This document shows, in pieces, positions 12,518-63,250 of a DNA stretch of 64,000 nt. The notes under the pieces were generated by a model. The model saw nothing but the letters and a program-made list of their open reading frames with translations. It was not told the origin of the DNA and made no database searches. Made by a program: the position numbers and the translations under genes. The stretch covers positions 4,253 to 68,252 of the forward strand of contig JBAZXG010000001.1 in the NCBI GenBank assembly GCA_041660005.1, read 5' to 3'. Each line of letters starts with the position of its first letter. The first letter of the stretch is position 1. Source of the stretch: Patescibacteria group bacterium (lineage in GTDB: Bacteria > Patescibacteriota > Patescibacteriia > GWA2-46-9).

Positions 12518-13087
12518 TTACGCCCGGCTCTGCGTCGCGTCGAGTGCCCGCAGGGCTTTCTTGAGACGCCTCGCTGCGTCTTCCTTCTTTGCCCCACCTT
12601 CTTTCAGCAGACGCCGGAAACCTGCGAATACGTCGCAAATCCGGTACCAGTAGCATTCCGTCTCGCTCTCCGTATCACTCAGTGAGCATGTGAGGTGATA
12701 GTGATTTCCGCCATGTTCGCATGGCAGCGCTGAGAAGAGCTTCCCGTTCCTTCGAAGAAATAGAACTGTCCCAGCCATCTCCGTCTCAACACAGACGGCG
12801 ATGCGAGCAGCCCGAACCTGCTCAATGCGCTCGCGGTAGTTCTTGTCCATACACTGTGGATAGAATTCATCAGTTACGGACACAGGTTCGTCAACGAACG
12901 GCAGGAAGGGCTTGACCACGCGGATGTTTTCCGCGATCGCTTGCTTGAGCCGTTCCCACAGTTGGGTCGCTTTTTCTTGCCCCATCCCTTCGTTGATCTG
13001 GTAGATGGTTCCTTGGAGACTTCGGAATTTGCGTCCACAAATGAGCGTACTCATTGTCTCGCGAACGCGGTTGAAGAACTTTTTCAT
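12518..13087 (-). CDS. Hypothetical protein, 189 aa, on a GC-rich cassette
   Basis: Longest ORF of the locally GC-rich segment. No recognisable motifs. Confidence 0.45.
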   Translation of the reverse strand: MKKFFNRVRETMSTLICGRKFRSLQGTIYQINEGMGQEKATQLWERLKQAIAENIRVVKPFLPFVDEPVSVTDEFYPQCMDKNYRERIEQVRAARIAVCVETEMAGTVLFLRRNGKLFSALPCEHGGNHYHLTCSLSDTESETECYWYRICDVFAGFRRLLKEGGAKKEDAARRLKKALRALDATQSRA

Positions 13088-24099: not shown

Positions 24100-24951
24100 T
24101 TACTTACGTCGCGCTTTACGCGTGGTACGGCGATTGAGAATAAGACGCTGCGAAGAACGATGCGTATCCCGAGTACGGACACCAAGAGCTGGTTTTCCAG
24201 TTGGTGTTTTCGGATACTTCATACCAATGGGGTTGTTACCTTCACCACCGCCGTGCGGGTGATCGACTGGGTTCATCGCTTTACCACGAACCGTTGGACG
24301 AATGCCGCGATGGCGAGATCGGCCTGCTTTACCCCAACGAATGTTACGGTGGTCAGCATTACCAACAACGCCAATTGTTGCCGAACATTCTTTGCGCACC
24401 AAACGAACTTCGCCTGAAGGCATTTTTAACTGAGCGTAATCTCCTTCAATAGCCATAAGCTCAACGCCGACGCCGGCACCGCGTGCCAGCTTACCACCTT
24501 CACCAGGACGAAACTCAACACTGTGCACCACCACACCCGGCGGAATGAGCTGAAGCGGCATGCGGTTTCCGGTAGCAACTTCGAGCGCATTTTTTGAAGA
24601 GACAATGGTATTGCCTACCGTAAGACCTTGCGGCGCAATCATATACGCTTTGGTGTTGTCGCTATATTCGACCAGTGCCAAGAAGGCGTTGCGATTCGGG
24701 TCGTACTCAATAGCCGTAACGGTTGCAGGAATGTCATAACGCGTACGCAAAAAATCAACAATTCTGATGTAGCGTTTTGCGCCGCCGCCACGATGACGAA
24801 CCGTAATTTTACCTTGATTGTTTCTACCGCCCTGTCTCTTTTTTGGAAGCAGGAGCGATTTCTCCGGATTGGTTTTCGTAATTTCAGCAAAAGACTGAAC
24901 GCTTGAATTACGTCGTCCCGGGGAAGTTGGTTTATAGATGCGTACGGGCAT
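24100..24951 (-). CDS. rplB: 50S ribosomal protein L2
   Basis: [15 protein letters not shown]...[10 protein letters not shown]. Confidence 0.9.
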
Positions 24952-27199: not shown

Positions 27200-28387
27200 T
27201 TACTTAACAATCTTTGTTACCACACCGGCACCAACAGTGCGACCGCCTTCGCGAATAGCGAAGCGTTGCTTCTCTTCAAGAGCCACCGGCACAACCAACT
27301 TCACAACCATTGTTGTGGTGTCGCCCGGCATGACCATTTCGGTCCCCTGTTGCAATGTAATTTCACCCGTCACATCCGTTGTACGCATATAGAACTGTGG
27401 CTTGTAGCCGGTAAAGAACGGCTTGTGGCGCCCACCCTCTTCTTTGGTCAAGGTGTATACCTCGGCTTCGAATTCGCTGTGCGGCGTTACCGTACCTGGC
27501 TTGGCCAACACTTGTCCGCGCACGACATCGTCTTTCTTCGTACCACGAAGAAGAATACCGGCATTGTCACCAGCGCGACCTTCTTCAAGGGACTTGTTAA
27601 ACATTTCAATCCCCGTGACCGTTGTCTTTTGCGTGTCTTTGATACCGATAATTTCGACTTCATCGCCGACTTTGACGATACCGCGCTCGATACGTCCGGT
27701 TACCACAGTTCCACGACCTTCAATAGAGAAAATGTCTTCAATCGGCATGAGGTATGGCTTTTCTGTCTCACGAACCGGTTCTGCGACGTAGGTATCAAGT
27801 TGATCAACGAGATCAAGCACTGGTTTTGCGAACTCTCCTGTTGGGTTTTCGAGAGCTTTCAATGCTGAACCGCGAATGATCGGAGTCTTGGCACCGTCGA
27901 AATGGTACTTCGTCAAAAGCTCCCGAATTTCCTCTTCAACGAGGTCAATCAGTTCAGGATCGGAAACCATGTCGACTTTATTGATAAACACCACAATCGT
28001 CGGCACACCGACCTGATAAGCAAGCAGAATGTGTTCACGTGTCTGTGGCATTGGACCGTCTGTTGCTGAAACGACGAGAATCGCTGCGTCCATCTGCGCT
28101 GCACCCGTAATCATGTTCTTGACATAGTCGGCGTGACCAGGACAGTCAACGTGAGCGTAGTGGCGCTTGTCTGACTCGTATTCAACGTGCGCAGTGGCAA
28201 TCGTAATACCACGGGCTTTTTCTTCCGGCGCTTTGTCGATTTCGTTAATACCTTTTTTCTGCGCGGTTTTACCAGCAGCAGAAAGAACTGCGAGCAATGC
28301 TGCAGTTAAAGTTGTCTTGCCGTGGTCAACGTGACCAATAGTCCCGACGTTGACGTGTGGCTTTGAACGGTCAAACATTTCTGCCAT
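27200..28387 (-). CDS. tuf: Elongation factor Tu
   Basis: [25 protein letters not shown] GTPase motifs. 395 aa. Confidence 0.95.
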
Positions 28388-28635: not shown

Positions 28636-30834
28636 CTAACGCGTCGCCCCAGAGTACGTGATGGCCTGCATTATATTCCAGTCATTTGTTGAATTGGGCG
28701 TACGACCGTAAATATCTTCAAATATCTCAATGCCCTTCTTCTCACTCTCTAATTTTCGGTTTTCAGCTTTTTGCCTGAGACCATACGCCATAACGGTAAC
28801 GGCGGCATTATCCTTGCCGTTCTGAAGGTTTGCTTCCCGCTTATAGATGTTTTTGAACTCAATTTTTGCACGACTTTCTGCTACCGCACTCTTCTTCTCT
28901 GGCCATCTGCCATTAGCAATTTTAATCGCATCAGTGAGTTCATCCTCGCTTTCGGGTAACTTGCCAAAGGCAGATTTGTACGAATACATCACTGCCGCTC
29001 GCTCTCCTGCTCCAAGCTTTTGTGTATTATCATCCACGCCGTAGGTGATAAAATTACTTAAGGCCTCTTTTGCCTCTTCAGATTTCATCACTTGACCAGA
29101 TGTCAATGCTCTAAGGTATTTGATTTCGGTCTCCTGCTCTTTAATGATGTTTCTAAGTTCTTTCAGTTCTCTTAGGATGGAATCAACATTATTTTCTTTC
29201 AGTAGGTACGCTTTCTCGCCGATGGTTTGCAACTGTTCGTCGGCAACTGAATCTTCCTTGCTCTCATCGGTACGAATTTGCACCTCTGTTTCTACTTCCG
29301 TCTCGCCGACTTCAGTAGTGCCAGTGCTCCCTCCACCTCCGCCGCCACCTGAACCGGAAGAAACAAACCACACAACGTTTGAACGGTAGGTTTTACCTGC
29401 CTTGCGGTCTATTAAAGAAATATAAACCCCCAGCGGTGGAGTACTCCCCTTCTTAATGGCGAACCAGAGATCATCCAGTTCTGCTGCTTTTTTCAGCCCG
29501 CAGAAACCATATATTCTTTTACCGTTTGCTTCGAATATCTCTACCCAGGTTCGGGAAGAGTTCACGTTAAGTCCGCACGCCGGCAAACTTGGCGCAACTT
29601 CAAACAGGGTATCAGGAAATGATGAACGGTTTGTTACGCTCAACCGGTAACGTACGAATTGACCGTCATTCGTTGAATAACTTTCAGTTCCTTTAAAGAC
29701 CAGCACAGGCTTAACGACCAATTCATCCTTATAATCAACGACAAAAACGTTACTGTCGTCATACCAACCTGACGCACCCGACGCACACGACTGACAGGCA
29801 ACCGTGATGACGTATTTGCCCGGGGCAATGCCGTCCGGAATGGTCCAAGCATAGGAACCGGTGTTCTTTATGCTGAGCGCAATGTTCTTTGTTTTTGTAT
29901 TTTCCCGGTCATTCAAGAGCACGTTGACGAGCCAGTTTGCTTCACCGCCACTCCAGGTGATATTACGCGTGTCACCAATGTACCAGGTTTCCCCGACGTT
30001 TTCTGGCGTATGAACAACGATAGGTTTCGTAATGTTCACGCTGCCATTAATCGTAAAAACGGGGCCGTCGCCAAACCACCCGGTTGTACCCATTTTGCAA
30101 CTCTGGCAAGCAACCCTAATAAAATATTCTCCCGGCTCAAGGTCGCGAGGAATGGTCCAAGAATAGAAACCGGTATTCTTTATGCTGAGAGCAATTTCTT
30201 TTGTGCGAGCAGTTTCTTTACCGGCTTCGATTAAGAGAACATTCACCGACCAGTCGGTTCCTCCGCCACCCCAAAAAATATTATAGGTCTGCCCAGCGTT
30301 CCACACAGCACCCGACTTCTCCGGAGTTGTCACGACAATGGACTGGTTAGTCAGCGGCGGTATGGTTACCTTCTGTTCCAGGGAGTTATTTTCTTCGTTA
30401 AATTCTGAAAGAATATTTTTAGGATCAACGGTTGCTCTGAAATAATACGTTTCGCCAGGTACAGCGTCAAAATATGCTGCCCCGCCGGTACCGTTTGTTT
30501 TACATTCACCCGGAGCAACCGCACTAACTCCCACCAAGTGATGGACAACCCGTGGCGCTCCCATGCCAATACGCTGAGTATCAACTTGAACCTCGCCTGA
30601 ACTCACTCCTCCGTTATTACAAACCGTAACCAAAATGACGCGATACGGTGTCGTGTCCGCTGCTATGGCGGACACGGATAAATCAGCTGACCGAACCGGA
30701 AAACCTAAAGACCCGCTCGAATCATCTGACGAAACTTCGGCTGCAGAAACAACGCTGACAGAAAAAACGGACGCACTAACAAGACTTACCGCAAACAGAA
30801 TCCCAACAAAAAGCGACATTTTTCTTCCTGACAT
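28636..30834 (-). CDS. Large secreted/surface multidomain protein. Domains in order: signal peptide, CARDB-like domain, two tandem ~100-aa Kre9/KNH(GPI-anchored)-like domains, beta-rich domain, poly-Gly linker, coiled-coil/alpha-helical C-terminal domain.
   Basis: N-terminal hydrophobic signal. Internal repeat IVVTTPEKSGAVWNAGQTYNIFWGGGG...YFIRVACQSCK versus IVVHTPENVGETWYIGDTRNITWSGGE...YVITVACQSCA. GGGGGGG linker. Confidence 0.7.
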   Translation of the reverse strand: MSGRKMSLFVGILFAVSLVSASVFSVSVVSAAEVSSDDSSGSLGFPVRSADLSVSAIAADTTPYRVILVTVCNNGGVSSGEVQVDTQRIGMGAPRVVHHLVGVSAVAPGECKTNGTGGAAYFDAVPGETYYFRATVDPKNILSEFNEENNSLEQKVTIPPLTNQSIVVTTPEKSGAVWNAGQTYNIFWGGGGTDWSVNVLLIEAGKETARTKEIALSIKNTGFYSWTIPRDLEPGEYFIRVACQSCKMGTTGWFGDGPVFTINGSVNITKPIVVHTPENVGETWYIGDTRNITWSGGEANWLVNVLLNDRENTKTKNIALSIKNTGSYAWTIPDGIAPGKYVITVACQSCASGASGWYDDSNVFVVDYKDELVVKPVLVFKGTESYSTNDGQFVRYRLSVTNRSSFPDTLFEVAPSLPACGLNVNSSRTWVEIFEANGKRIYGFCGLKKAAELDDLWFAIKKGSTPPLGVYISLIDRKAGKTYRSNVVWFVSSGSGGGGGGGSTGTTEVGETEVETEVQIRTDESKEDSVADEQLQTIGEKAYLLKENNVDSILRELKELRNIIKEQETEIKYLRALTSGQVMKSEEAKEALSNFITYGVDDNTQKLGAGERAAVMYSYKSAFGKLPESEDELTDAIKIANGRWPEKKSAVAESRAKIEFKNIYKREANLQNGKDNAAVTVMAYGLRQKAENRKLESEKKGIEIFEDIYGRTPNSTNDWNIMQAITYSGATR

Positions 30835-31248: not shown

Positions 31249-33327
31249 CTACTTCTTTGCCCGCTCCCCAACGATCGTTTCGGTAACGTTTCGAGGAACT
31301 TCAGAATAGTGGGCAAACTCCATGGAGTGGCTAGCGCGGCCCTGAGACATTGAGCGTAATTCCGTCGCGTAACCGAACATTTCAGCCAAAGGAACCAGTG
31401 CGTCAATAACCCGCATACCACCGCGTTCACGCATTTCCTGTACCTGTCCACGGCGTGCATTAACGTCTCCAATAACATCACCCATAAACTGCTCCGGAGT
31501 AATGATTTCTGTTTTCATCATCGGCTCCAAAAGTACAGGATTTGCGCGCTTACAACCTTCTTGGAAAGCCATCGATGCAGCGATTTTAAATGCCGCCTCA
31601 GAAGAGTCAACGTCGTGGTAAGAACCGTCATACACCGCAACACTGACGTCAATCATGGGGTACCCGGCAAGCACACCACGGTCTAAGGCCTCTTGTACGC
31701 CCTTACGCACGGCCGGAATGTATTCGCGAGGGATAGCGCCGCCTTTAACCTCGTCAACGAATTCGAACCCAGCGCCTTCTTTGCGAGGGCTAACGCGCAA
31801 CCAGCAGTGACCGTATTGTCCGCGTCCGCCAGATTGCTTAATGTATTTTCCTTCAGCTTCTGAAACTTTACGAATAGTCTCGCGATAGGCCACCTGTGGC
31901 TTACCAACGGTCGCTTCAACTTTAAACTCTCGCTTCATGCGGTCGACAATGATGTCGAGGTGCAATTCTCCCATACCCGAAATAATGGTCTGCCCAGTTT
32001 CTTCGTCGCTCCTGACCTTGAAGGTTGGGTCTTCTTCAGCCAATTTTTGTAGGGCAATACCCATTTTTTCTTGATCTGCCTTGGTTTTTGGTTCAACCGC
32101 AACGGAAATAACTGGTTCAGGGAAGGTAATCGATTCAAGCACAACGGGTCGCGCTGGATCACAAATGGTGTGGCCGGTAAAGGTGTTACCTAGCCCGACA
32201 GCCGCGGCAATGTCGCCTGCGTAAACCATGTCGACTTCTTCGCGACTATTGGCGTGCAAGCGCACGATGCGACCGATGCGCTCGCGTTCATCAGTAACCG
32301 TGTTTAACACATACGAACCCGACTTCAATGTTCCAGAGTAAACGCGGAAGAAACAAAGCTTGCCGACAAATGGGTCAATAGCAACCTTAAAGGCGAGCGC
32401 GGTAAAGGGCTCGCTGTCGTCAGCTGGAATCAAAACCTGTTCTTCGCTGTCTGGTATAGTCGCCATGACTGGCGGTACCTCAATTGGTGAAGGCAAATAA
32501 TCAACCACCGCATCAAGGAGCTGTTGCACACCCTTGTTCTTCAACGCTGAGCCGCACAGTACGGGAATAATAGTCTGGGCAATAGTCGCTTTGTGGAGCA
32601 CGCGCTTCAAATCAGCAAGCGACGGCTCAGTGCCGCCAAGGTACTGTTCCATCAACACTTCGTCTTGCTCAACAATGGCGTCAATGAGTTTCGCGCGGTA
32701 GGTTGCTACCTTTTCTTTCATGTCGTCTGGAATATCTCGTTCTTCAAATTTCGTTCCTAGTTCGTCCGTATAGAAAAAAGCTTTCTGTGTCAAAAGATCG
32801 ATAATTCCAAGAAAATTCTCCTCAGCGCCAATCGGTAGCTGAATGGGGTAGGCCAGAGGGTTCAATCGTTCGTGAATAGAAGCAAGGTCAGCATAAAAAT
32901 CCGCACCCGTACGATCCATTTTATTGATGAAGCAAATGCGCGGCACGTGGAATTTGTCTGCCTGGTGCCAAACTGTTTCAGACTGCGGTTCAACGCCGGC
33001 CACGCCGTCAAAAACGACGACACCGCCGTCTAACACGCGCAGCGACCGCTGTACCTCAACCGTAAAGTCGATGTGCCCGGGCGTGTCGATAATGTTGATG
33101 CGGTTGTCCTTCCAGAAACAGGTGGTAGCTGCAGCAGTAATGGTGATACCCCGCTCGCGCTCTTGCTCCATCCAGTCCATGGTCGCTTCACCCTCGTGCA
33201 CTTCGCCTATTTTGTGTTTTTTCCCAGTATAGAAAAGGATGCGTTCCGTCACCGTTGTCTTACCCGCATCAATGTGGGCGATGATACCGATGTTGCGTGT
33301 TTTTTCAAATGTATAATCGCGAGGCAT
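31249..33327 (-). CDS. fusA: Elongation factor G
   Basis: [25 protein letters not shown]. 692 aa. Confidence 0.95.
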
Positions 33328-33451
33328 AGATTAAGAATTTATGATAATCCCCACATTGATGCGGGAAGGGGTCGGTGAACCTGGGTTCCCGCGGCGGAAA
33401 TACCAAAACCGAGGGGTTGTGGAGAGCAGTGGCGGATGCCGCTGCGATGCG

Positions 33452-33510
33452 AAATGTGGGCGATGATACCGATGTTGCGCGTTTTTTCAAATGTATAATC
33501 GCGAGGCATA
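33452..33510 (-). repeat. 59-bp direct duplicate (1 mismatch) of the fusA ribosome-binding site and first 19 codons, about 180 bp upstream of the real start
   Basis: 33270-33328 versus 33452-33510 are near-identical. Inverted copy of fusA codons 17-22 at 33349-33364. Confidence 0.7.
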
Positions 33511-33617
33511 GTTTAATGCTTTAAGCTGTACGTTTTACGCTTTACGTTGTTTTACGTTGATTCTTATTTCACTAAATGAGCGCGCGTATAGCGTAGTACG
33601 TACTGCCATTGTCGCGC

Positions 33618-34085
33618 TTAGCGCGCGAAGTGAGAGAATGCGCGGTTCGACTCTGCCATCCTGTGGATGTCCAGCTTTTTCTTTATGGCTGCGCCTTCTC
33701 CCTCGGCAGCTGACATAATTTCGTGTGCTAATTTTTGCTGCATAGGACGACCCTTACCGTTTCGTGCGGCTTCAATAATCCACCGATATGCTAGCATTTG
33801 GCGCCGTTCTACACGTACCGGAACAGGGATCTGATAGTTACCGCCACCAACTCGACGACTTCTAACCTCAACCACTGGTGCGACGTTCTTAATGGCTTCG
33901 TCAAATACTTCTGTCGGGTTTTTCTTGGTCTTTGCCGCTACAATATCAAACATGCCGTAAACAATTTTTTGTGCGGCTGCTTTTTTCCCACGACCCATGA
34001 TGTAGTTGATGAATTTTGCAATATCAACCCGCTGAAACTTTGGATCAGGGGCAATCGTTCTTTTTGGTGCTTGCTTACCTCGCAT
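33618..34085 (-). CDS. rpsG: 30S ribosomal protein S7
   Basis: IAPDPKFQ..., conserved S7 core. Confidence 0.9.
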   Translation of the reverse strand: MRGKQAPKRTIAPDPKFQRVDIAKFINYIMGRGKKAAAQKIVYGMFDIVAAKTKKNPTEVFDEAIKNVAPVVEVRSRRVGGGNYQIPVPVRVERRQMLAYRWIIEAARNGKGRPMQQKLAHEIMSAAEGEGAAIKKKLDIHRMAESNRAFSHFAR

Positions 34086-34090
34086 AATTA

Positions 34091-34510
34091 TTACTTCTTA
34101 GGTCTCTTCGCGCCATAGCGGCTGCGAGAGCGGTTGCGGTTAGCAACGCCTTGTGTGTCATAAACACCACGCACGATAGTGTAACGAACACCTGGTAAGT
34201 CTTTAACACGTCCCCCACGAATAAGGACGATAGAGTGTTCCTGTAGGTTGTGGCCAACACCAGGAATGTAAGCCGTTACTTCCATGCCGTTTGATAGTCG
34301 AACACGGGCAATTTTACGCAGCGCCGAGTTTGGCTTTTTCGGTGTTTGTGTCGTTACTTTAAGACAGACTCCCCGTTTGAACGGGCTGCCCATAGCAATA
34401 ACACTGCGACGACGGTGCAGTGTATCCAGCACGGTCTGCATGGCTGGTGACTCAGATTTTCTGTTTTTGCTCCGTCGCGCACCGCGTCGAAGCTGATTAA
34501 TAGTTGGCAT
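34091..34510 (-). CDS. rpsL: 30S ribosomal protein S12, with a roughly 16-aa insertion near the N-terminus
   Basis: MPTINQL...KRGVC...[11 protein letters not shown]...[14 protein letters not shown]. The insert [16 protein letters not shown] is unusual. Confidence 0.9.
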
Positions 34511-34652
34511 TATGGGTATTTTTCAGTAAACGAAAAGTAGACTAGAGGTCCCCTAGATCTACTTAAAATGAGAGATATCTATGGACAAACTGCCTTTCTC
34601 GACAGTGCGGAGATTGTACGGTAATTACTGCACTTACGTCAAGTCTACCTCT

Positions 34653-35291
34653 TTACGTAGAGAGAAGGGCTTGAATAAGGAGCGAAAAACCACTCTGGCC
34701 AAGGATAATACTTGCCACCCAAAAAATGAGCGGTGCAATGATATTCGCGAAAAAAAGAATGAAAATCAGGAATAAAAACATGCCATACTGACGCAAAAAA
34801 TCAGCCACATGGTCAAAACGCGGCGGCAGCATTGCCAAAAGAACGTGCGATCCATCGAGTGGTGGTATGGGAACAAGGTTGAAAACAGCGAGTAGAACGT
34901 TGGCATAGACTACAATTGTTGCAACCGATGCCATGACTGCTGGTAGCGGCACAAAACGGACAATGAGGCCAAAAACGCAAGCAAGCGCCAAATTTCCCGC
35001 TGGACCAGCGAGCCCCACCAAGGCCGGTCCATATTTTGGATATTTTAAGTTGTACGGGTTAAACGGAACAGGTTTCGCTGCTGCAAACATAAACCGGCCA
35101 CCGGTTGAAAAAAACAACAGCGCCGGCAGTAGGAGCGTCATGAACGGATCAATGTGTGCCGCTGGATTCAACGTCAGTCGCCCGAGATCACGCGCAGTCG
35201 AATCCCCCATCTGGTCAGCTGCCCAGCCATGCATATACTCGTGAAAAACCGCCGAGAGCAAAAGTATTACAAAAAATGCTGCAATCATCAT
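34653..35291 (-). CDS. Site-2 protease family (peptidase M50) membrane zinc metalloprotease
   Basis: HEYMHG (HExxH) in a TM helix. NLVPIPPLDGSH motif. Confidence 0.8.
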   Translation of the reverse strand: MMIAAFFVILLLSAVFHEYMHGWAADQMGDSTARDLGRLTLNPAAHIDPFMTLLLPALLFFSTGGRFMFAAAKPVPFNPYNLKYPKYGPALVGLAGPAGNLALACVFGLIVRFVPLPAVMASVATIVVYANVLLAVFNLVPIPPLDGSHVLLAMLPPRFDHVADFLRQYGMFLFLIFILFFANIIAPLIFWVASIILGQSGFSLLIQALLST

Positions 35292-35856: not shown

Positions 35857-37425
35857 TTATAGATCGTTACCCGTGTACGACAAACTGAAACTTTTATTGA
35901 TGAGCGGAAAATCTGGTACGACATTATGCGCTCCGGCATGCCCCAGTAGCGACCAGTTCATAAACGAAGGGTCGCGCAAGGCAACTCTGGTAATATTGCC
36001 GCGTTCGTCGGTTTTTACAAAATAGACTATTTCCCCTCGCCATCCTTCGACCACGCTTATTGCCAGTGCATTTTTTTTGTATGGAGTAGTGCTGGCCAGA
36101 CTGATTGGTCCTTCGGGCAGGGTCTGCAGTGTTCGCTCAATTAAGGCAAGCGATGCACGCGCCTCTTTAATGCGAACATAAAATCTTGCATAAACATCTC
36201 CACTTTCTTCAGTTTCAACTGTTTTAAAACCGAGTCCTTCGTAGGCAGCATAGGGAAAATCCAGACGCGCATCAGTTTTAATGCTAACTGCCCGAGCGGC
36301 AACGCCCGTTGCTCCATGCTCTAAAGCAATTTGAAGAGCGAGTACGCCAGTACCCTTCAAGCGGTTAAGGAGCGAATCGCTATTTTCAGCAACTGCAATA
36401 ACTTCACCAAAATCTTTTGCTATGAGAGCAAGGTCTTGCAAAAGTTTTTTCTTTGCTTCATCGGTGATGTCCTTCGTCACTCCACCGCACATACTTACAC
36501 CGCGCAAAAACCGAGAGCCGGTCAACCGTTCGTTGATTTGCATCACCATCTCCCTGAGACGAGCGCCTTGCGCCCCGCCAAAATTAAACCCCGTATCAGT
36601 CATGATGGCACCAATATCACCAAAGTGATTCGCTAGCCGTTCTAATTCTGCGTACACAACGCGTAAAGAAGCAGCTCGCTTTGGCACAGTCACATCACTT
36701 AATTCTTCGAGCGCCTGACAAAACGCGAGTGAGTGGCTAAATGAACTATCTCCAGAAATTTTTTCAGACAGACGCACCATGTCCGTTGACGATAATGTTT
36801 CGAATATTTTTTCACTCCCTTTATGCGTATACCCGAGCCGAGGTTCAAGTAAAATTATTTCCTCTCCTGCCACACTAAACCGGAAATGACCCGGTTCAAT
36901 AATCCCCGCGTGAATAGGACCCACTGGTATCTCGTAGATTCCCTCCCCTCCTACTTTTTGAAACTCATATGTTCCTATTGCAGTCTCTGGTCTTGTTTGC
37001 CAGTCAAAGTCTTTTCTCAATGGATAGACGTCTGCGGGCCAATTTTCATGAAGAATGTTCGGTCGATCGTCAGGATGACCAACAGGGTTCAAACCAAAGA
37101 AAGTTCTGATTTTTCTTTCGTGATTCCAAGCTTCGTGAATATCGGCAGATAAAGATGGAAATTCATTCGTACCTTTTAAACTGATAAAAGGAACGATGAA
37201 GGCATGCTCTCCCGGCACACCGAAGACATACCAAATTCTGAAACAACCATGCTCCTCTCTCTCGTCAGTAGCGGTGATGAACTTGAGCTGCAAATTTTTG
37301 TCATACCGCAAATTGTGAGCAAGGGCACACACCTCTGACACCGCAGTTTCAAAAACAGCGGCATTGCCAAACACATCTATTTTTACGCTACTGGGAATAT
37401 ACTTTTTGAGTTGCTCAATGTTCAT
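35857..37425 (-). CDS. NuoC-NuoD fusion / HycE(HyfG)-like large subunit lacking NiFe-ligating cysteines (Ehr-type)
   Basis: RLGYTHKG replaces the RxCGxCxxxH L1 motif. The C-terminal KSFSLSYTGND replaces DPCxxCxxR. Confidence 0.7.
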   Translation of the reverse strand: MNIEQLKKYIPSSVKIDVFGNAAVFETAVSEVCALAHNLRYDKNLQLKFITATDEREEHGCFRIWYVFGVPGEHAFIVPFISLKGTNEFPSLSADIHEAWNHERKIRTFFGLNPVGHPDDRPNILHENWPADVYPLRKDFDWQTRPETAIGTYEFQKVGGEGIYEIPVGPIHAGIIEPGHFRFSVAGEEIILLEPRLGYTHKGSEKIFETLSSTDMVRLSEKISGDSSFSHSLAFCQALEELSDVTVPKRAASLRVVYAELERLANHFGDIGAIMTDTGFNFGGAQGARLREMVMQINERLTGSRFLRGVSMCGGVTKDITDEAKKKLLQDLALIAKDFGEVIAVAENSDSLLNRLKGTGVLALQIALEHGATGVAARAVSIKTDARLDFPYAAYEGLGFKTVETEESGDVYARFYVRIKEARASLALIERTLQTLPEGPISLASTTPYKKNALAISVVEGWRGEIVYFVKTDERGNITRVALRDPSFMNWSLLGHAGAHNVVPDFPLINKSFSLSYTGNDL

Positions 37426-37426
37426 A

Positions 37427-38863
37427 CTAGTAGTTGAGCGCGGCGCCTTTAATTAAAACCTGTAAAAAGGCGGGCTGATAAAAACTAAGATACAGCACCA
37501 GGGTAATGAGCGCGAACGGTGGAATAATGAGTGTCATCTTTTCTTTCTCTGGCTCTAGATCATGGGGTTTCTCTCCGAAAAACATGTCTGAAGCGTGCTT
37601 TAGAAAACCAATAAACACCATGGCGGTCAGAAGCATTGCTACCACGGTTAAAAACGGATGCAGGGTTATACCAGAAGAGAAAATTAAAATCTTGGTAAGA
37701 AAAATACCGAAGGGCGGTGCGCCCGTTATAGCAAAAATACCAATCAAAAAAAGTACACTCGTTATCGGAAGCGCGCTGAGAGCACCTTTGACCTTGGCAA
37801 TTTTGGTCGAGCTGTATTTCAAAAAAATATTTCCCGACAGTAAGAAGAGTGCCGACTTCAGTAGCGAGTGATAAATCATGTGCAGCAACGCCGCAAAAAC
37901 CCCCACACCACCCAAACCAAAACCAAGCGCAGTGATTCCCATGTTTTCAATGCTCGAATACGCCAGTAACCGTTTGTAATTATACTGCGTGAAGATTATG
38001 AATGAAGCTACAAGAATCGATAGTAAGCCGAAAATAATAAGTAGGCGCTGCGGAAAATCTGGGCCTACAGACGCCGCAGTAATCACCTTAAATCGTAAAA
38101 TCGTAATGAAGGCCACATTCAGAAGGACGCCGGACAACAGCGCGCTCACGGGAACCGGCGCCTTGCTGTGCGCATCAGGGAGCCAGGTATGCATTGGCGC
38201 AAGCCCAACTTTTGTACCGTAACCAATCAGTACAAAAATGAAAGCAATCTTAGCAATCACCGGATCAAGATGCGACGCATTGTTGAGTAAGCTCGTCCAG
38301 GTAGCAAAGCCAGTACTCGTTTGTAATGAACTGAAAAAAAGCAGTGTTCCAAAAAACGCCAGCAGTAAACCAATGGAGTTGATAATGAGATACTTCCATG
38401 CTGCCTCTACAGCTGATGGTTTGTTGTAAAAGCTAATGAGAAACGCCGTAGAAAGCGTTGTGGCTTCAATAGAAATCCAGGCAATGATAGGACTACTGGA
38501 TGAGACGGCCAGAAACATCGCCGCCAAAAAGAGATCCAGCAAAATATAGTACTGCTTAGACCGAGTAAACCCAATAATTTTTTTCGCAGTTTCTTTTCTT
38601 AGATACTGAACGGAATACGTTACCGCCGCAAGGCCGACGCAAGAAATAAGAAGCATAAGGAGCGCCCCCAAGGCATCGACGGAAAAAAATTCAGACGGAA
38701 CATAGTTCCCCGTTGCTGCAACCCTGAGAGCAACAGTCACCGATTCCACCAAAGCAACGCCCACCGCTACAACTGCCGCTACCTCAATGACAGCTCGACG
38801 CCGCACCATCAGGGTGATAAGCGCAGCCGCACATAATGAGAAAAAGATGATTGATACTTCCAT
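37427..38863 (-). CDS. Antiporter-like membrane subunit (NuoM/N, HyfF/Mrp-D family)
   Basis: 14-TM protein with complex I antiporter-like motifs. Confidence 0.7.
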   Translation of the reverse strand: MEVSIIFFSLCAAALITLMVRRRAVIEVAAVVAVGVALVESVTVALRVAATGNYVPSEFFSVDALGALLMLLISCVGLAAVTYSVQYLRKETAKKIIGFTRSKQYYILLDLFLAAMFLAVSSSSPIIAWISIEATTLSTAFLISFYNKPSAVEAAWKYLIINSIGLLLAFFGTLLFFSSLQTSTGFATWTSLLNNASHLDPVIAKIAFIFVLIGYGTKVGLAPMHTWLPDAHSKAPVPVSALLSGVLLNVAFITILRFKVITAASVGPDFPQRLLIIFGLLSILVASFIIFTQYNYKRLLAYSSIENMGITALGFGLGGVGVFAALLHMIYHSLLKSALFLLSGNIFLKYSSTKIAKVKGALSALPITSVLFLIGIFAITGAPPFGIFLTKILIFSSGITLHPFLTVVAMLLTAMVFIGFLKHASDMFFGEKPHDLEPEKEKMTLIIPPFALITLVLYLSFYQPAFLQVLIKGAALNY

Positions 38864-38867
38864 AGCG

Positions 38868-39515
38868 CTAATCTTTTAATTGCTTCATAACACTGGTGTC
38901 GAGTGACCCAAAGTGCAGATAGATCATCGAAATAAAAACAGATGCAATAACCAGCCAAATCGAGATGTCAAAAATGATACCAATCTGAAGCATTGGTGAC
39001 TGTTCAAGTCCTGCAAAAACCGCAAAGGCGACAATACTATTTTCCAGAGAAAGAATACCGATCGCCTGAGACAGTGCACCTTTACGATTAACGATTAAGA
39101 ACAGTGAGATAAGCATTGCAGAAAACGTCAGCGACAATAAAGCGTGGTTGGCAGAAAGAATATCGGTGAGCGGCAAAAACTTTTCAGAATGCGCCACGGC
39201 AGTTAAGACCGTGAGCACGATCAATGTCAGCGGTGTATTTAGATAGGTGCTACCCGAAAAGGTTAAGTCGTGTCGCTGAATCAGTCGAACAAAAAATGAC
39301 GGCGCCAACATAACCTTAACAATGAAGGTTGCCAAAATGATGAAAAGAAGCGGAGCACTACTCGTGGCCAGAAAAGAATTAAATAAAATCAACACAACAG
39401 CAAAAGACTGAATACCATAGGCAACCACGGCTTCAAAATTCTTCTTAATGAGGTGCAAATAAATAATACTTAAAAAAACTGCACCAATTAAAAGGAGTAA
39501 AAACAATGAACTCAT
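38868..39515 (-). CDS. HyfE-like small membrane subunit (hydrogenase-4 component E / NuoK-related)
   Basis: About 215-aa polytopic membrane protein at the HyfE position and size. Confidence 0.5.
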   Translation of the reverse strand: MSSLFLLLLIGAVFLSIIYLHLIKKNFEAVVAYGIQSFAVVLILFNSFLATSSAPLLFIILATFIVKVMLAPSFFVRLIQRHDLTFSGSTYLNTPLTLIVLTVLTAVAHSEKFLPLTDILSANHALLSLTFSAMLISLFLIVNRKGALSQAIGILSLENSIVAFAVFAGLEQSPMLQIGIIFDISIWLVIASVFISMIYLHFGSLDTSVMKQLKD

Positions 39516-40444
39516 AGAATTTCGATGATACCAATAGCTACTGCGCTCAAAACAAAGGAAGTTACCAGAAGATCCGGTAATCTAAAGAACCTGAACTTCG
39601 CAGTCGTGGATTCAAGAACTGCAATAATAATGCAGAGTACGAATATTTTTGCGAGAAGCGCAGCCATACCCAACAGAACGGCACTAGCGTCTGCACTCGC
39701 AGCAATGCCATAAGGGAAAAACACATTCGCACCAAGAGCGGCAAAAATAAACAACTTGTTAGACGCCGCCCATTCCATGAGCGCCAACTTCTTTCCTGAG
39801 TATTCTAAAATCATCGCCTCGTGAATCATGGTGAGCTCCAGGTGCGTGGCCGGATTATCAAAAGGGAAGCGTCCGGTTTCAGCAAGTAAAACAATAAAAA
39901 AACCTGCAAACGCCAACACCATTGGTAAAAAGTACTGAACGGTAAATAATATTCTGGCATCCGCTATCACAAAAAGATTGGTCGTTCCGACCATGAGCGA
40001 AACCGCGACGAGTGCAAGTATGAGTCCCCCTTCTGCGAGTGCGGAGACGGTCATTTCACGACTAGAACCAAACCCGCCAAAGGCACTGCCCGTATCCATA
40101 CCAGAGAGCGCCAAAAAAAACGTACCAATAGCAAGTCCATACACTACCATTAAGAGATCGCTCGTTACCGCATTGTTCAAAAAAGAAGCGAACAACGGAA
40201 TACTGGCACCGATAACTACGGTAACCGTAAAAACAATCACTGGCGCAGCAGAAAAAATCCAGGAGGCGTCTCGGCTTACTACCTCATCCTTATGCATAAG
40301 TTTCCAGATATCACGGTAGGGCTGCAGAATACTGGCTCCGTCACGATTCTGCAACTTTGCTTTAATTTTTCTGATAATGCCGACAAAGAGCGGCGACAGT
40401 ACCGGCACAAAAACAAGTTGCATTATCCAAACAAGAGTCGTCAT
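39512..40444 (-). CDS. NuoH / HycD(HyfC)-like membrane subunit
   Basis: GIIRKIKAKLQNRDGASILQPYRDIWKLMHKDE and AETGRFPFDNPATHLEL signature motifs. Confidence 0.75.
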   Translation of the reverse strand: MTTLVWIMQLVFVPVLSPLFVGIIRKIKAKLQNRDGASILQPYRDIWKLMHKDEVVSRDASWIFSAAPVIVFTVTVVIGASIPLFASFLNNAVTSDLLMVVYGLAIGTFFLALSGMDTGSAFGGFGSSREMTVSALAEGGLILALVAVSLMVGTTNLFVIADARILFTVQYFLPMVLAFAGFFIVLLAETGRFPFDNPATHLELTMIHEAMILEYSGKKLALMEWAASNKLFIFAALGANVFFPYGIAASADASAVLLGMAALLAKIFVLCIIIAVLESTTAKFRFFRLPDLLVTSFVLSAVAIGIIEIL

Positions 40445-42501
40445 ATATTTATGGTGCTAAACAACAGGGCGGCTATAACGGCCACAAAAATATACAAAAC
40501 ATACATATTGATGTTCCCGCTCTGAATCGTCTTGGCGCGCATCGACAACGCGGTAACCACCTGACGAAGCGGCTGATAAAAATAGAGCTGATAGACATCA
40601 CGCGTCGTTAAATGTACCGTCCTCGATTTTGGCAAGTACCGCATCTCTGAATCGTGGTATTCAACATCGTGCTGCATGCTCGGCTTTAAAATACCGGCAA
40701 AGATAAGCACAATGGATCGGGCAAACCCCACGGCGGTAATTTCCATGCGCGAATTAAGGTCAACGCCGCAATCCCACGTTGACCCAATACTAATTTTCTG
40801 GTTCCTATTAACGATAAACTTAACTAACCAGAAAATCAGAAGAAATGCTAAAACAAAAAAGAAAAAGAACGCGGGTGCAGAAACTGAACCGAAAGCGTTT
40901 GATGCGATAAGTGCACTACGGAAAGCTGGCGCTACAGAAAACGGAACGTTCCGGAACAGATTAAGACTGCTGCTCACGTTAACAAAGAGCGGTCCGATGT
41001 ACCCTGACAATAGCCCAAGCAGAAGGGAGAGCGTAGCTAATGACCCCATGCCCAACGTAAGCCAAAGCGACGATTCTTTGGCATGACCAACTTCAGCACT
41101 CCTCGGTCGAGCGAGAAACGTTACGCCGAAAGCTTTGACAAAACAGGCGAGAGCCAGCCCACCCGTTATAGCCAGTGCACCTGTCGCTAGTACAAAAATT
41201 AACTTTACAAAAATATCCGCTGACGCCATTCCTTGAAGCAAAACCTGAAACGTCAGCCACTCGCTAAAGAAACCATTAAACGGTGGCAAGGCAGAAATCG
41301 CCATAGAACCAATAAGAAAAAAGAAGGCGGTCATTGGCATATACTTGATGAGTCCCCCGTACTCTTCCATGTTCCGTGTATGCGTTTGGTTAATCACTGA
41401 CCCAGCGCTCAAAAAGAGGAGCGACTTGAATATGGCGTGATTCAGGGTGTGAAACAGTGCGGCAGCTAGACCGAGAAGCGCTAGTGCTTGATTACCGAGC
41501 GCTGAAAAAGTAAGCGCACTACCAATGCCGAGAAGAATAATGCCGATGTTTTCAATACTGTGGTAGGCCAAAAGTCTTTTTATATCGTGCTCCGTCAGTG
41601 CATACAGAACCCCGAGAAGGGCAGATACGGCACCAATAACGAGCACAGTTATCCCCCACCACAAAGGAATTGGCTGCAGCACATCGAAGAAAATCCTGAT
41701 CATCATGTAAATACCGGTTTTTATCATGACCCCAGACATGAGCGCCGAGACATGAGAAGGTGCGGCAGGATGAGCACTCGGTAACCAAATATGGAATGGA
41801 ATAATACCGGCCTTTGTGCCAAAGCCGATGAGCGCCAGTATAAAAATAACGTTTTTAATACCTGTAGGAACGAGTGCAACACCTGATTGAATTACTGCAA
41901 AATCGAATGAGCCGGTGAACCTATAGAACAATAAAAAGGCAAGGACAATAAATGCAGTACCAATATGCGTCATGATGAGATACAGAAATCCTGCTTTGAC
42001 GTTGTTCGTATCGTTTTTATCATAGACCACAAGAAAATACGACGCGACCGCCATAATTTCCCAGGCAATCAAAAAGAACAGTCCGTTTGATGCTGATACC
42101 ACCATAAACATGCCCGCGATGAACAAGTGATAAAAAAATCCTAAAGCACCAATACTATAGCGATCGTAAAAATGTTTTATATAGCCGACTCCGTACATTG
42201 AACAAAAAAGAGAGACGACCGAAATAATAAAAATGAAGAAAGCCGCAAGTAAATCAATATGGAAAGAGAAGGAAAGAAGTGGAAAAACCGATGTGCCTAT
42301 TGAAAAAGAAATTGCTTGTGCGCTAGAAAATGCTTGAATCGAAAAGAATATACCCCAGAGCGAACCTAAAGCTGCAAAAAAATGCTGCCAGATATTCGCT
42401 AAGGCGTTTCGTTTTCTAAAGAGTAGTGACCCCGAGGCACCTATAGCATAGAGCGATAGAAGAACACCAAAACTCATTTCAAACGACAAAGGCCCAATCA
42501 T
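40441..42501 (-). CDS. NuoL / HyfB(HycC)-like large antiporter subunit
   Basis: 686 aa. AWEIMAVASYFLV...KAGFLYLIMTHIG motif. Confidence 0.75.
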   Translation of the reverse strand: MIGPLSFEMSFGVLLSLYAIGASGSLLFRKRNALANIWQHFFAALGSLWGIFFSIQAFSSAQAISFSIGTSVFPLLSFSFHIDLLAAFFIFIISVVSLFCSMYGVGYIKHFYDRYSIGALGFFYHLFIAGMFMVVSASNGLFFLIAWEIMAVASYFLVVYDKNDTNNVKAGFLYLIMTHIGTAFIVLAFLLFYRFTGSFDFAVIQSGVALVPTGIKNVIFILALIGFGTKAGIIPFHIWLPSAHPAAPSHVSALMSGVMIKTGIYMMIRIFFDVLQPIPLWWGITVLVIGAVSALLGVLYALTEHDIKRLLAYHSIENIGIILLGIGSALTFSALGNQALALLGLAAALFHTLNHAIFKSLLFLSAGSVINQTHTRNMEEYGGLIKYMPMTAFFFLIGSMAISALPPFNGFFSEWLTFQVLLQGMASADIFVKLIFVLATGALAITGGLALACFVKAFGVTFLARPRSAEVGHAKESSLWLTLGMGSLATLSLLLGLLSGYIGPLFVNVSSSLNLFRNVPFSVAPAFRSALIASNAFGSVSAPAFFFFFVLAFLLIFWLVKFIVNRNQKISIGSTWDCGVDLNSRMEITAVGFARSIVLIFAGILKPSMQHDVEYHDSEMRYLPKSRTVHLTTRDVYQLYFYQPLRQVVTALSMRAKTIQSGNINMYVLYIFVAVIAALLFSTINI

Positions 42502-42503
42502 AG

Positions 42504-43040
42504 TTATGATGGCAGTTTACTTTCTTGCGTTTTCAAAATACGGAGCAAGTGCGCAAGAATGGTTTTGGGTGAAGGTGGATCTCCGGGAATCGCGTAGTCT
42601 ACGGGTATGACTTCTTTTACACCGTCTAATACTGCATAGGACCCTTTAAAAATACCGCCGCTTATAGCGTCGTCACCAACTGCGACAACAATTTTAGGGT
42701 CAGGCGTCGCCTCGTACGCACGGCGCACAGCAACCGCCATATTGCGTGAGACTGGGCCCGTAATGAGCAACATATCAGCATGTTTGGGAGAAGCGACAAA
42801 ATGAATTCCAAACCGTTCTACGTCGTAAAAAGCATTAGAAAGGGCGACCAACTCTTGTTCGCAGGCATTGTCGGATCCTGCGTCAACTTGTCGGATAGCC
42901 AACGACCCACCAAATAACCGTTTAATACTGTCTTGCAATTCTTTACCAAGCACGACAATGTCTGGTTGTTCTTTTTCAATATCAGTCAAAGGAATAACAT
43001 TCCTATGCGTTTTCAAAATTTTCAAAAAAAGTTTAATCAT
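42504..43040 (-). CDS. NuoB / HycG(HyfI)-like small subunit lacking 3 of 4 Fe-S (N2) cysteines
   Basis: DVERFGIHFVASPKHADMLLITGPV and TPDPKIVVAVG conserved. The C ligands are replaced: CNGC becomes DNAC, GACP becomes GDDA, PGCPP becomes PGDPP. Confidence 0.75.
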   Translation of the reverse strand: MIKLFLKILKTHRNVIPLTDIEKEQPDIVVLGKELQDSIKRLFGGSLAIRQVDAGSDNACEQELVALSNAFYDVERFGIHFVASPKHADMLLITGPVSRNMAVAVRRAYEATPDPKIVVAVGDDAISGGIFKGSYAVLDGVKEVIPVDYAIPGDPPSPKTILAHLLRILKTQESKLPS

Positions 43041-43994: not shown

Positions 43995-44087
43995 GTCCCG
44001 TCTGACGGGACCAAGGACATTCATGTAGTTCTTGGTCAAAATTATTGCCGAATAGCATTTGTACCATAGTTCGAACTATAGTACAAA
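43995..44087. repeat. About 95-bp repeat module, left copy: CCCGTCTGACGGG hairpin, spacer, palindrome GTACCATAGTTCGAACTATAGTAC
   Basis: Homologous to 46838-46931 (about 70% identity, same orientation) and partly to 63300-63350. Confidence 0.6.
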
Positions 44088-45487: not shown

Positions 45488-45652
45488 GATTTTCCCTCCG
45501 GAAAATTTCCCTTTTCAGGGATGGTTGTGCCCATGAGGTCGGTCGCATCTGTTGGCGACAAACTCACATGAACCGATGAACCTAGCATAAATTGAGGGAA
45601 ATGTCAAGAATAAATGACAAAAATATTTGAAAAATCTTTTTTAAATTTAAAT

Positions 45653-45914
45653 TATAAACTCTTAACGTCCTCGGGCTGTGCCCTCGAGACTAGTTGTCCA
45701 CTTTCTTACTTGTCTAAGAAAATGGACGGAAAGAATGACACCCTCAGGACTCGGCTGGGGCATGACTGCACTCCGAAAACCGATAGTCGTGAACTCCCCG
45801 CCATACTTCTTCAGATGTAGGCGGGTCAAACAGCACGACCATTCCTTCGGTTCTCTCCGTTTGTCATTACCTACGCCGATCCTATGGGACTTTGCACTCC
45901 GCTCTGCCAAACCC
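45653..45914. repeat. About 260-bp interspersed element copy 1: terminal hairpin segment plus conserved core
   Basis: About 85% identical, in inverted orientation, to 63040-63250. Its 5' 80 bp is also found direct at 62823-62905. Confidence 0.6.
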
Positions 45915-47436: not shown

Positions 47437-47898
47437 TTATGTATCCTGGAGAACGCCTTCTGAACCCACGCTATGCTTGCCGCGATGACGTTTTCGCTCT
47501 GCAATGTGTAAGCGCGCAAGTGAACGCTGCAGCTCAGCAGCAGCATCAGTGTAGTGTTCAGTGTCAACACGTTCGGTCTCCATTATTTGCTTCGCACGTT
47601 CTTTAGCCGCTTTTGCTCTTTCGACATCAATTTCGTCAATGTGCTCGGCAGCGTCTGCCAAAATGATAACCTTGCTACCCGCTTGCACTTCGATAAAACC
47701 ACCCGCCACAAAAATTGATGTAATATCATTACCTCTTTTTATGGTTAGCTCCCCGGGCACGAGCGCGCTAACGAGCGGGATGTGATTTGGCAAAATAGTA
47801 ATTTCGCCGGTGGTCGTCGGCAGTGTTACCTGATCGACCGTCTCTTTATAAACGGTTCGCTCGGGAGTAGTGATTTCGAAATCAATCATAGTAATTAA

Positions 47899-47910
<12 letters not shown>
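47437..47910 (-). CDS. atpC: ATP synthase F1 epsilon subunit
   Basis: Beta-sandwich N-terminal (ITILPNHIPL...) followed by a helical C-terminus. Confidence 0.85.
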
Positions 47911-49830
<1,920 letters not shown>

Positions 49831-59620: not shown

Positions 59621-59873
59621 CTCAGGAAGAGTCTGCCCTTCGGCTCATTTCATTCGCTCAGGACACTTCGACTCAGGAAGAGTCATGGGCACTCGCCCCC
59701 TCGACTAAGTCGGTGTCGCTTACCTCGGCAAAATCCTCGGCATCTTCGACGGGACACTTCGACCTGTGGTGAACGTAGTCGAACCATTTATAGTGAACAA
59801 CGTCGAACCACTCAGGAAGAGTCTGCCCTTCGGCTCATTTCATTCGCTCAGGACACTTCGACTCAGGAAGAGT
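59621..59873. repeat. Two 64-bp direct repeats (59621-59684 and 59810-59873), each containing CTCAGGAAGAGTC inverted pairs. The second abuts the tRNA-Val 3' end.
   Basis: Exact repeat visible in the sequence. Confidence 0.6.
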
Positions 59874-59878
59874 CGAAG

Positions 59879-59955
59879 TGGTGGGCGGCAGAGGATTCGA
59901 ACCTCTGACCTTTTGCGTGTCGAGCAAACGCTCTAACCAACTGAGCTAGCCGCCC
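59879..59955 (-). tRNA. tRNA-Val (anticodon GAC). Position 33 is C.
   Basis: Reverse complement GGGCGGCUAGCUCAGUUGGUUAGAGC G UUUGC UCGACAC GCAAA ... GGUUCGAAUCCUCU GCCGCCCACCA. Confidence 0.8.
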
Positions 59956-62674: not shown

Positions 62675-62822
62675 AACGTTATTCAGCTGTCAAAGGCCAG
62701 CCAACTTTGCCTAATTCTTGAAATTCGCACCGGCGAAACCTTATCAAAAAGTGAGGAAAGTTACAATGAAAAATAATCTGGCCATTAACATGGAGTGTTA
62801 CATCTATTTCGTTTATTTCTTT

Positions 62823-63250
62823 AAAAACTCATAACGTCCTCGGGCTGTGCCCTCGCGACTATTTGCCTACTTTCTTACTCGCCTAAGAAAGTAGACGGAA
62901 AGAACGGCGCCCCGCATCGACGCTCCTGGTCGGCAGCCATTCCGAAACGAACACGGCGGCAATGAACTTGCTACGCTGCAGACAGCATTGCCGCTCAATC
63001 GTGTTCGTTTCGTCTGTCTGCTCTCCCCGGTCGATGAGGGGGTTTGGCAGGAAGTGGAACAATCCCATAGGATCGGCGTCGGTAATGACCAGTGGAGAGA
63101 ACCGAAAGAATGGTCGTGCTGTTTGACCCTGAGTGAAGTCGAAGGGGAGTTCACGACCATCGGTTCTCGGAGTGCAGTCATACCCCAGCCGAGTCCTGAG
63201 GGCGGGCTTTCTTTCGTCTATTTCTTTGCCCGCACAAAGAAATAGACAAC
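62823..63250. repeat. Composite copy 2 of the ~260-bp element: direct terminal segment (62823-62905), a 150-bp unique segment, and an inverted full copy (63040-63250)
   Basis: Alignment to 45653-45914 in both orientations. Confidence 0.6.

Follow-up and report, generated by a model that had tools for sequence, protein, structure and literature searches.

Template-switch and snap-back repair mechanisms have been characterized mostly in eukaryotes and in a few model bacteria. Translational coupling between neighboring genes weakens sharply as the distance grows, and little of it is left at about 20 nt; unfolding of the mRNA by the upstream ribosome is an alternative route (PMC10666635, PMC12548453). 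The S7 operator of Escherichia coli sits between rpsL and rpsG and is known from the Gammaproteobacteria only (PMC3616713). In this study, we have analyzed the junction between rpsG, which encodes ribosomal protein S7, and fusA, which encodes the elongation factor EF-G, in a 64-kb stretch of DNA from a Patescibacteria group bacterium (contig JBAZXG010000001.1; hereafter, the window), where the start of fusA occurs twice and a short part of the gene recurs in inverted orientation. It is concluded that the 5' end of fusA probably carries a recent, lineage-specific duplicative insertion of 182 bp, a scar of repair or recombination and not an evolved regulator.

Two repeats define the element. A repeat finder recovered a direct repeat of 71 nt (33271-33341 versus 33453-33523; 93% identity, 182-nt spacing), within which a near-perfect core (33271-33329 versus 33453-33511) matches at 58 of 59 nt. 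We refer to the copy that is continuous with fusA as copy A and to the upstream one as copy B. An earlier, sequence-only reading of this DNA had described the 59-bp repeat with its one mismatch, at ranges (33270-33328 and 33452-33510) that were one base off, and had taken it to cover the fusA ribosome-binding site; the repeat stands, but the block reaches just to -2, and no Shine-Dalgarno sequence is present. The core ends 2 nt before the ATG, and the next 14 nt upstream agree at only about 10 positions. Its sole mismatch (33298 T, 33480 C) is synonymous, ACA/ACG in Thr10, and at this position copy A retains the A that is found in relatives. The arms of the inverted repeat (33263-33278 and 33350-33365) are complementary at 16 of 16 positions and lie 71 nt apart, which bears out the proposed inverted copy of fusA codons 17 to 22, at 33350-33365 rather than 33349-33364. 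It is the sole perfect inverted repeat of at least 16 nt with a loop of 10 to 300 nt in the window, and 30 block-shuffled windows contained none. The direct and inverted repeats are real and far beyond chance.

In the order of the mRNA, the rpsG stop codon is followed by an AT-rich spacer of 108 nt, by copy B, by an insert of 123 nt (33452..33330) and by copy A with the rest of fusA (Table 1). The insert consists of about 85 nt of GC-rich filler, the 16-nt inverted block (33365..33350) and 20 AT-rich nt; its GC content is 61% (33342-33451), versus 47.7% for the whole window. Its ends share only 8 nt (CCCACATT and AATGTGGG), both derived from fusA, and there are no other terminal inverted repeats. 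Copy B opens an upstream open reading frame (ORF), which was found as proposed (56 codons, 33509..33339) and whose first 19 residues are those of the EF-G N terminus; the exact product of this ORF is not on record, and no homologue of its insert-encoded part was found.

The relatives bear on the age of the event. EF-G places the window in the Patescibacteria, near Candidatus Uhrbacteria, and the best comparator, at 91% EF-G identity, is Candidatus Uhrbacteria bacterium CG10_big_fil_rev_8_21_14_0_10_48_11, which is represented by three assemblies (L085-L087). It has an 82-nt spacer between the S7 and EF-G genes and no repeat of the fusA start. The relatives at 85% (L081/L082) and 83% (L083/L084) EF-G identity have spacers of 81 and 92 nt, again with no duplication, and the gene order M50 peptidase, S12, S7, EF-G, EF-Tu is kept in the 91%, 85% and 83% relatives. 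A TACGC/ACGTA-rich spacer of a kind like that in the window lies 5' of fusA in L081 and L083. A repeat of the organism's own fusA start was seen in 0 of 80 species representatives. When 182 nt are subtracted from the window, a spacer of 108 nt remains, which is within the range of the relatives. Both copies read CCT CGC GAT TAT ACA, where the relatives read CCC CGA GA(A/T) TAT; these substitutions are specific to the lineage and common to both copies, which disagree with each other at 1 of 59 positions. The duplication hence took place inside the lineage, long after it had parted from the 91% relative.

The fusA leaders of the relatives are not unusually structured (z from -0.1 to -1.0). The sequence-only reading had left two interpretations side by side, a translational control structure or upstream ORF for EF-G and the scar of an insertion or excision, and had suggested a comparison of the spacer in relatives, with short, unstructured spacers and a restricted arrangement speaking against a conserved regulator. 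That is the outcome of the comparison: the relatives' spacers are short and not unusually structured, and the arrangement is confined to the lineage. A conserved cis-regulatory leader would be expected to recur in sequence and structure upstream of fusA in related genomes, but the relatives at 91%, 85% and 83% lack the element and the 80 species representatives lack the duplication; the 16/16 pairing of the helix in the one carrier genome gives no covariation signal. The scar is the interpretation that these data favor, given the absence of the arrangement from relatives, their spacers of 81 to 92 nt and the lack of duplications among the 80 representatives.

Table 1. Coordinates of the features at the rpsG-fusA junction (positions in the window)
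Feature	Position	Strand	Remarks
rpsL	34510..34091	minus	5 nt separate rpsL and rpsG
rpsG (ribosomal protein S7, 155 aa)	33618..34085	minus	ORF; same protein on Logan contig L088, annotated PF00177 Ribosomal_S7
Native rpsG-fusA spacer	33512..33617	minus	AT-rich, 41% GC over the stretch measured; repeated ACGTA/CGTAAAAC motifs; precedes copy B
Copy B, upstream duplicate of fusA -2 to +57 (CT, ATG, 19 codons)	33453..33511	minus	Native leader context
Upstream ORF, 56 codons	33339..33509	minus	19 EF-G codons and 37 insert codons; TAA at 33341-33339
GC-rich filler	33366..33452	minus	About 85 nt
Helix 5' arm, CCCGCATCAATGTGGG	33350..33365	minus	Perfect inverted copy of fusA +50 to +65; -38 to -23 from the fusA ATG; within the upstream ORF
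20-nt AT-rich stretch, GATTATCATAAATTCTTAAT	33330..33349	minus	Present immediate fusA leader; contains the upstream ORF stop codon
Copy A, fusA -2 to +57	33271..33329	minus	Continuous with the remainder of fusA
Helix 3' arm	33263..33278	minus	fusA +50 to +65, codons 17 to 22, conserved AHIDAG GTP-binding motif
fusA (EF-G, 692 aa), intact	31249..33327	minus	Full EF-G Pfam architecture; 100% identical to P0001, 91% to P0121

The arrangement itself suggests how the insertion may have been made. A local duplication is combined with an inverted patch that matches nearby sequence, as in templated-insertion scars. It can be imagined that the event joined fusA at +57 to the GC-rich filler of about 85 nt, and that the inverted 16-nt patch, some 20 AT-rich nt and a new copy of fusA from -2 onward then followed. 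The template of the patch would have lain only 71 nt away, and the patch straddles the +57 breakpoint; both features suggest that template switching or snap-back synthesis took place while a broken fork or a break was repaired. Along the plus strand, antisense sequence of fusA runs into a stretch of 20 nt, beyond which comes the reverse complement of that antisense sequence, a pattern that snap-back or template-switch synthesis would be expected to write. The perfect pairing over 16 nt, with no G-U pair or mismatch, fits templated copying better than long selection for pairing. The insertion would not have been lethal, because an intact start and N terminus of the essential gene were regenerated.

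The source of the insert was sought in several collections. Apart from the 16-mer of the conserved AHIDAG motif, neither the window nor any of 88 related loci contains a further copy of the insert, and searches of viral contigs (with two patterns), plasmids and phages returned nothing beyond one match at the level of chance (E = 0.3). Six-frame translations of the filler had no match among 5.8 billion proteins at E values up to 10. A 22-mer from the insert had no match in the JGI metagenome contigs; neither did a 24-mer specific to the fusA of the lineage, and the species is absent from that collection. When 32800-34700 was scanned against Rfam with E values of up to 10 allowed, the sole match was a spurious one to a microRNA, outside the element, and no tRNA or tmRNA fragment was found within the insert. 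Several candidate origins were considered and rejected. As a diverged copy of downstream fusA, on either strand, the insert shows no significant similarity. A transposon or miniature inverted-repeat element was set aside since the insert occurs as a single copy in 64 kb and the duplication is 59 nt long, not 2 to 15 nt. For a self-splicing intron, no group I or group II family appeared in the Rfam scan at E values up to 10. With a start in copy A itself, there is no need for the 182 nt to be spliced out or bypassed in translation, and the locus shows no signature of an intron.

Several observations weigh against a single repair event as the full account of this locus. Neither the window nor the collections searched yielded a template for the filler, so that the proposed repair mechanism is inferred from the inverted patch. 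Identity between the copies is uneven, at 58/59 from -2 to +57 and only about 10/14 just upstream, where a single clean duplication predicts otherwise. The feature is seen in the one available genome of the species; furthermore, the nearest comparator is only 91% identical in EF-G, and the element could therefore be conserved in a narrow clade that is unsampled. Finally, a perfect 64-nt direct repeat with a spacing of 190 nt, beside the tRNA-Val gene, hints at a recurrent process.

This second repeat lies at 59621-59684 and 59811-59874, directly after the 3' end of tRNA-Val (59955..59879, minus strand), and its unit starts and ends with GACTCTTCCTGAG. The 126 nt between its two copies have no sequence relation to the fusA insert. 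Its scale is like that of the event at fusA; an att remnant, or another scar left by the process that acted at fusA, may be seen here.

An independent assembly bears on whether the arrangement exists in the organism at all. The window comes from a metagenome-assembled genome, the full region is present in one assembly, and inverted junctions are typical of amplification chimeras; an artefact of assembly or amplification, such as a tandem strain bubble or a chimeric molecule, could thus be proposed, the real genome having a single fusA start. A Logan contig (L088, from run SRR18595301), which was found through the exact S7 protein, agrees with the window at 100% identity along 3,604 nt and ends at 33482, after ...ATGCCTCGCGATTATACATTTGAAAAAA, one base short of a 31-mer common to both copies. 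Logan assemblies are built with k=31, and the exact stretch that the two copies share before their mismatch (CTATGCC...AAAAAAC) is 31 nt long. With that 31-mer as the branching node, a stop one base before it would be expected if both repeat contexts occur in the reads. This supports the arrangement at the level of k-mers; co-location of both contexts on one molecule is not proven by it. An artefact is highly unlikely in our judgment, since this independent assembly of the same strain agrees over 3.6 kb and stops exactly at the shared 31-mer, the 59-nt repeat is shorter than typical reads, and the filler is unique and must be bridged by reads on both of its sides.

The remaining alternatives accept the insertion as real and differ in its origin or its use. 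The first of them involve the structure of the leader. The segment 33370..33255 has a predicted fold of -41 kcal/mol (z = -6.8), and the 16-bp long-range helix that had been suggested to enclose the true start appears in the predicted minimum-free-energy structure. The arms of this helix are at -38 to -23 and +50 to +65, so that the region covered by the 30S subunit is predicted to lie within the loop, unpaired. To open -20 to +19 is predicted to take 8.8 kcal/mol at fusA, 9.8 kcal/mol at copy B and 9.9 kcal/mol in the reconstructed ancestral mRNA; at 8.8 versus 9.9 kcal/mol, the insertion is not predicted to mask the fusA start. A model in which the helix occludes that start and makes fusA depend on the upstream ORF was dropped on the same figures. 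A translational control device or upstream ORF for EF-G is thus left unsupported, since the helix encloses the start but is predicted to leave the initiation region unpaired and as accessible as in the ancestor.

An evolved control of EF-G translation, in which the upstream ORF mimics the EF-G N terminus and its translation opens or closes the helix, tuning EF-G synthesis to, for example, elongation capacity, nevertheless has some features in its favor. A strong helix encloses the start, the ORF crosses the 5' arm and ends 11 nt before the ATG, the predicted cost of opening the start drops from 6.5 to 4.0 kcal/mol once the end of the ORF is kept single-stranded, and structure could matter in an organism that is largely devoid of Shine-Dalgarno sequences. 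None of the relatives examined, however, not even that at 91% EF-G identity, has such an arrangement, and both the near-perfect copies and the helix indicate recent copying, not maintained pairing. Together with a helix that would leave the initiation region unpaired and with its predicted accessibility unchanged, no terminator-like or alternative switch structure and no match to an Rfam family, this makes an evolved device highly improbable. That the scar was later co-opted as a sensor, such that EF-G-dependent elongation on the upstream ORF would set the opening of the fusA start or reinitiation there in an autoregulatory loop, is highly unlikely. In this scenario, which nothing supports so far, an ORF with the first 19 codons of EF-G would have to be translocated through the 5' arm of the helix that closes the loop around the true start, and one rearrangement would have created the whole circuit.

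Two further explanations assign the copies and the filler to an outside source. If an integrative element (with a tyrosine integrase or of the Campbell type) had entered the 5' end of fusA, the copies would be the attL and attR cores, the element would have supplied the replacement start, and nearly all of it would since have been deleted. Direct repeats of tens of bases do flank compositionally different DNA at a gene end here, the gene is intact by way of a supplied 5' end, similarity fades gradually upstream of the ATG, and a comparable perfect 64-nt repeat lies right after tRNA-Val, a classic integration site. Nevertheless, just 123 nt separate the repeats, the vicinity contains neither an integrase nor other genes of an element (rpsG and fusA are the neighbors, and the six-frame search was empty), and the filler has no match in the phage, plasmid and viral collections. 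The deletion would also have had to spare both att cores, and an inverted 16-nt copy 71 nt away is untypical of such cores; we therefore regard an element remnant as quite unlikely. Alternatively, imported DNA, foreign or from a sister strain, consisting of filler, a leader and a fusA 5' end could have entered by homology-facilitated illegitimate recombination, with a homologous exchange inside fusA and an illegitimate joining of the other end at +57, by which -2 to +57 would have been duplicated. This would reproduce the exact topology (native leader with copy B, heterologous DNA, and copy A with the gene) and agrees with the difference between the immediate leaders of copies A and B. The donor, however, must already have carried the filler and the inverted 16-mer upstream of fusA, which was seen in none of the relatives, and copy A has the lineage's own substitutions, so that the donor must have been nearly the same strain. 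We consider this route very unlikely.

If the junction is a repair scar, as we propose, its consequences for translation would be limited. Ribosomes would load at the native leader on copy B and translate the 56-codon ORF as a by-product. The TAA of this ORF and the fusA ATG (33327) are 11 nt apart, a stop-start distance that falls within that of translationally coupled pairs (overlap or within about 20 nt), and the ORF runs through the 5' arm; because it stops before the ATG, there is no out-of-frame reading into fusA. A stop close to the ATG is unsurprising because the AT-rich leader has stops in two of the three frames. When the last 34 nt of the ORF are held single-stranded in the model, the opening cost of -8 to +19 falls from 6.5 to 4.0 kcal/mol. 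The upstream ORF may therefore pass some ribosomes to fusA by unfolding of the mRNA or by reinitiation, and a modest contribution of coupling to fusA translation is plausible. Direct initiation on fusA would also be possible, with the start region in a loop and predicted to have kept its former accessibility. Overall, EF-G output has probably changed little. For most genes in the window, the 20 nt next to the start contain no Shine-Dalgarno motif, the exceptions being tuf (27200..28387) and the genes at 24100..24951 and 12518..13087; leader accessibility should therefore matter in this genome. No terminator-like site or alternative switch structure, of the kind used in attenuation, was found in the fusA leader.

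The repeated fusA unit contains a sigma-70-like match, TTGAAA-16 nt-TATCAT (10/12), at 33490..33463 and 33308..33281 on the minus strand. Through the duplication, a second such match now precedes the true start of fusA by about 130 nt; overall, promoter-like sites in the window are not enriched over shuffles.

The surroundings of the junction have their own history. Spacers of 0.5 to 2 kb with unrelated ORFs, and with no fusA repeats, separate rpsG from fusA in seven other loci (L003, L010, L038, L050, L055, L058 and L076), and by these long-spacer loci the rpsG-fusA junction has been interrupted repeatedly across the Patescibacteria. In the window, a 732-aa ORF with Kre9_KNH and CARDB Ig-like domains (28636..30834, minus strand) lies between fusA and tuf. 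Since tuf directly follows fusA in the 91%, 85% and 83% relatives, this ORF is another lineage-specific insertion into the operon.

Elsewhere in the window, a six-gene module resembling complex I or a group 4 membrane hydrogenase (35857..43040, minus strand), which is also present on L088, encodes a NuoB-like protein, two NuoL/M-like antiporter subunits, a NuoH-like protein, an unassigned 215-aa protein and a fused NuoC-NuoD; in a member of the Patescibacteria, with its reduced metabolism, such a module is unusual. Dispersed repeats relate 45652-45889 to 62821-63250, with further members at 44058, 46900 and 63321 and at 47894-48063; they include a 92-nt direct repeat (86%), inverted repeats of 107 and 67 nt (78% and 93%) and a tandem 85-nt unit present twice. 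A 30-nt palindrome, TTTGTACCATAGTTCGAACTATAGTACAAA, occurs at three or four sites in the window.

The locus adds neither a new class of mechanism nor an answer to a long-standing question. It does indicate that a cell can survive an insertion into the initial 20 codons of a translation gene that it needs for life, provided that the start region is rebuilt in the same event, and that one rearrangement can yield a long-range helix together with an upstream ORF, from which new regulation could evolve. In addition, a decoy EF-G N terminus of this kind can mislead gene callers.

Among described systems, the autoregulation of the E. coli str operon by S7 (PMC3616713) involves the same operon (rpsL-rpsG-fusA-tuf) and the same idea of mRNA structure combined with coupling. 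Unlike that operator, the feature described here lies between rpsG and fusA; the gap between rpsL and rpsG is 5 nt, and there is no Rfam match. Translationally coupled pairs (PMC12548453, PMC10666635) are similar in that the upstream ORF ends 11 nt before the start and reads through an arm of the enclosing structure. Here, however, the upstream ORF is no gene but an accidental chimera in which filler follows 19 EF-G codons, the fusA start is predicted to be accessible without coupling, and 11 nt is already in the range of reduced reinitiation. The att duplications of integrative elements that supply gene ends likewise place repeats of tens of bases around compositionally foreign DNA and leave the target gene intact, whereas this locus has no integrase, just 123 nt between its repeats and a filler unlike any mobile element. 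Scars of template-switch repair, such as those of microhomology-mediated break-induced replication or of synthesis-dependent end joining with snap-back, differ in that no template was found in our searches for the filler of about 85 nt. They are alike in the following: the event is a one-off that is missing from relatives, a duplication flanks the filler, and a reverse patch from tens of bases away spans the breakpoint.

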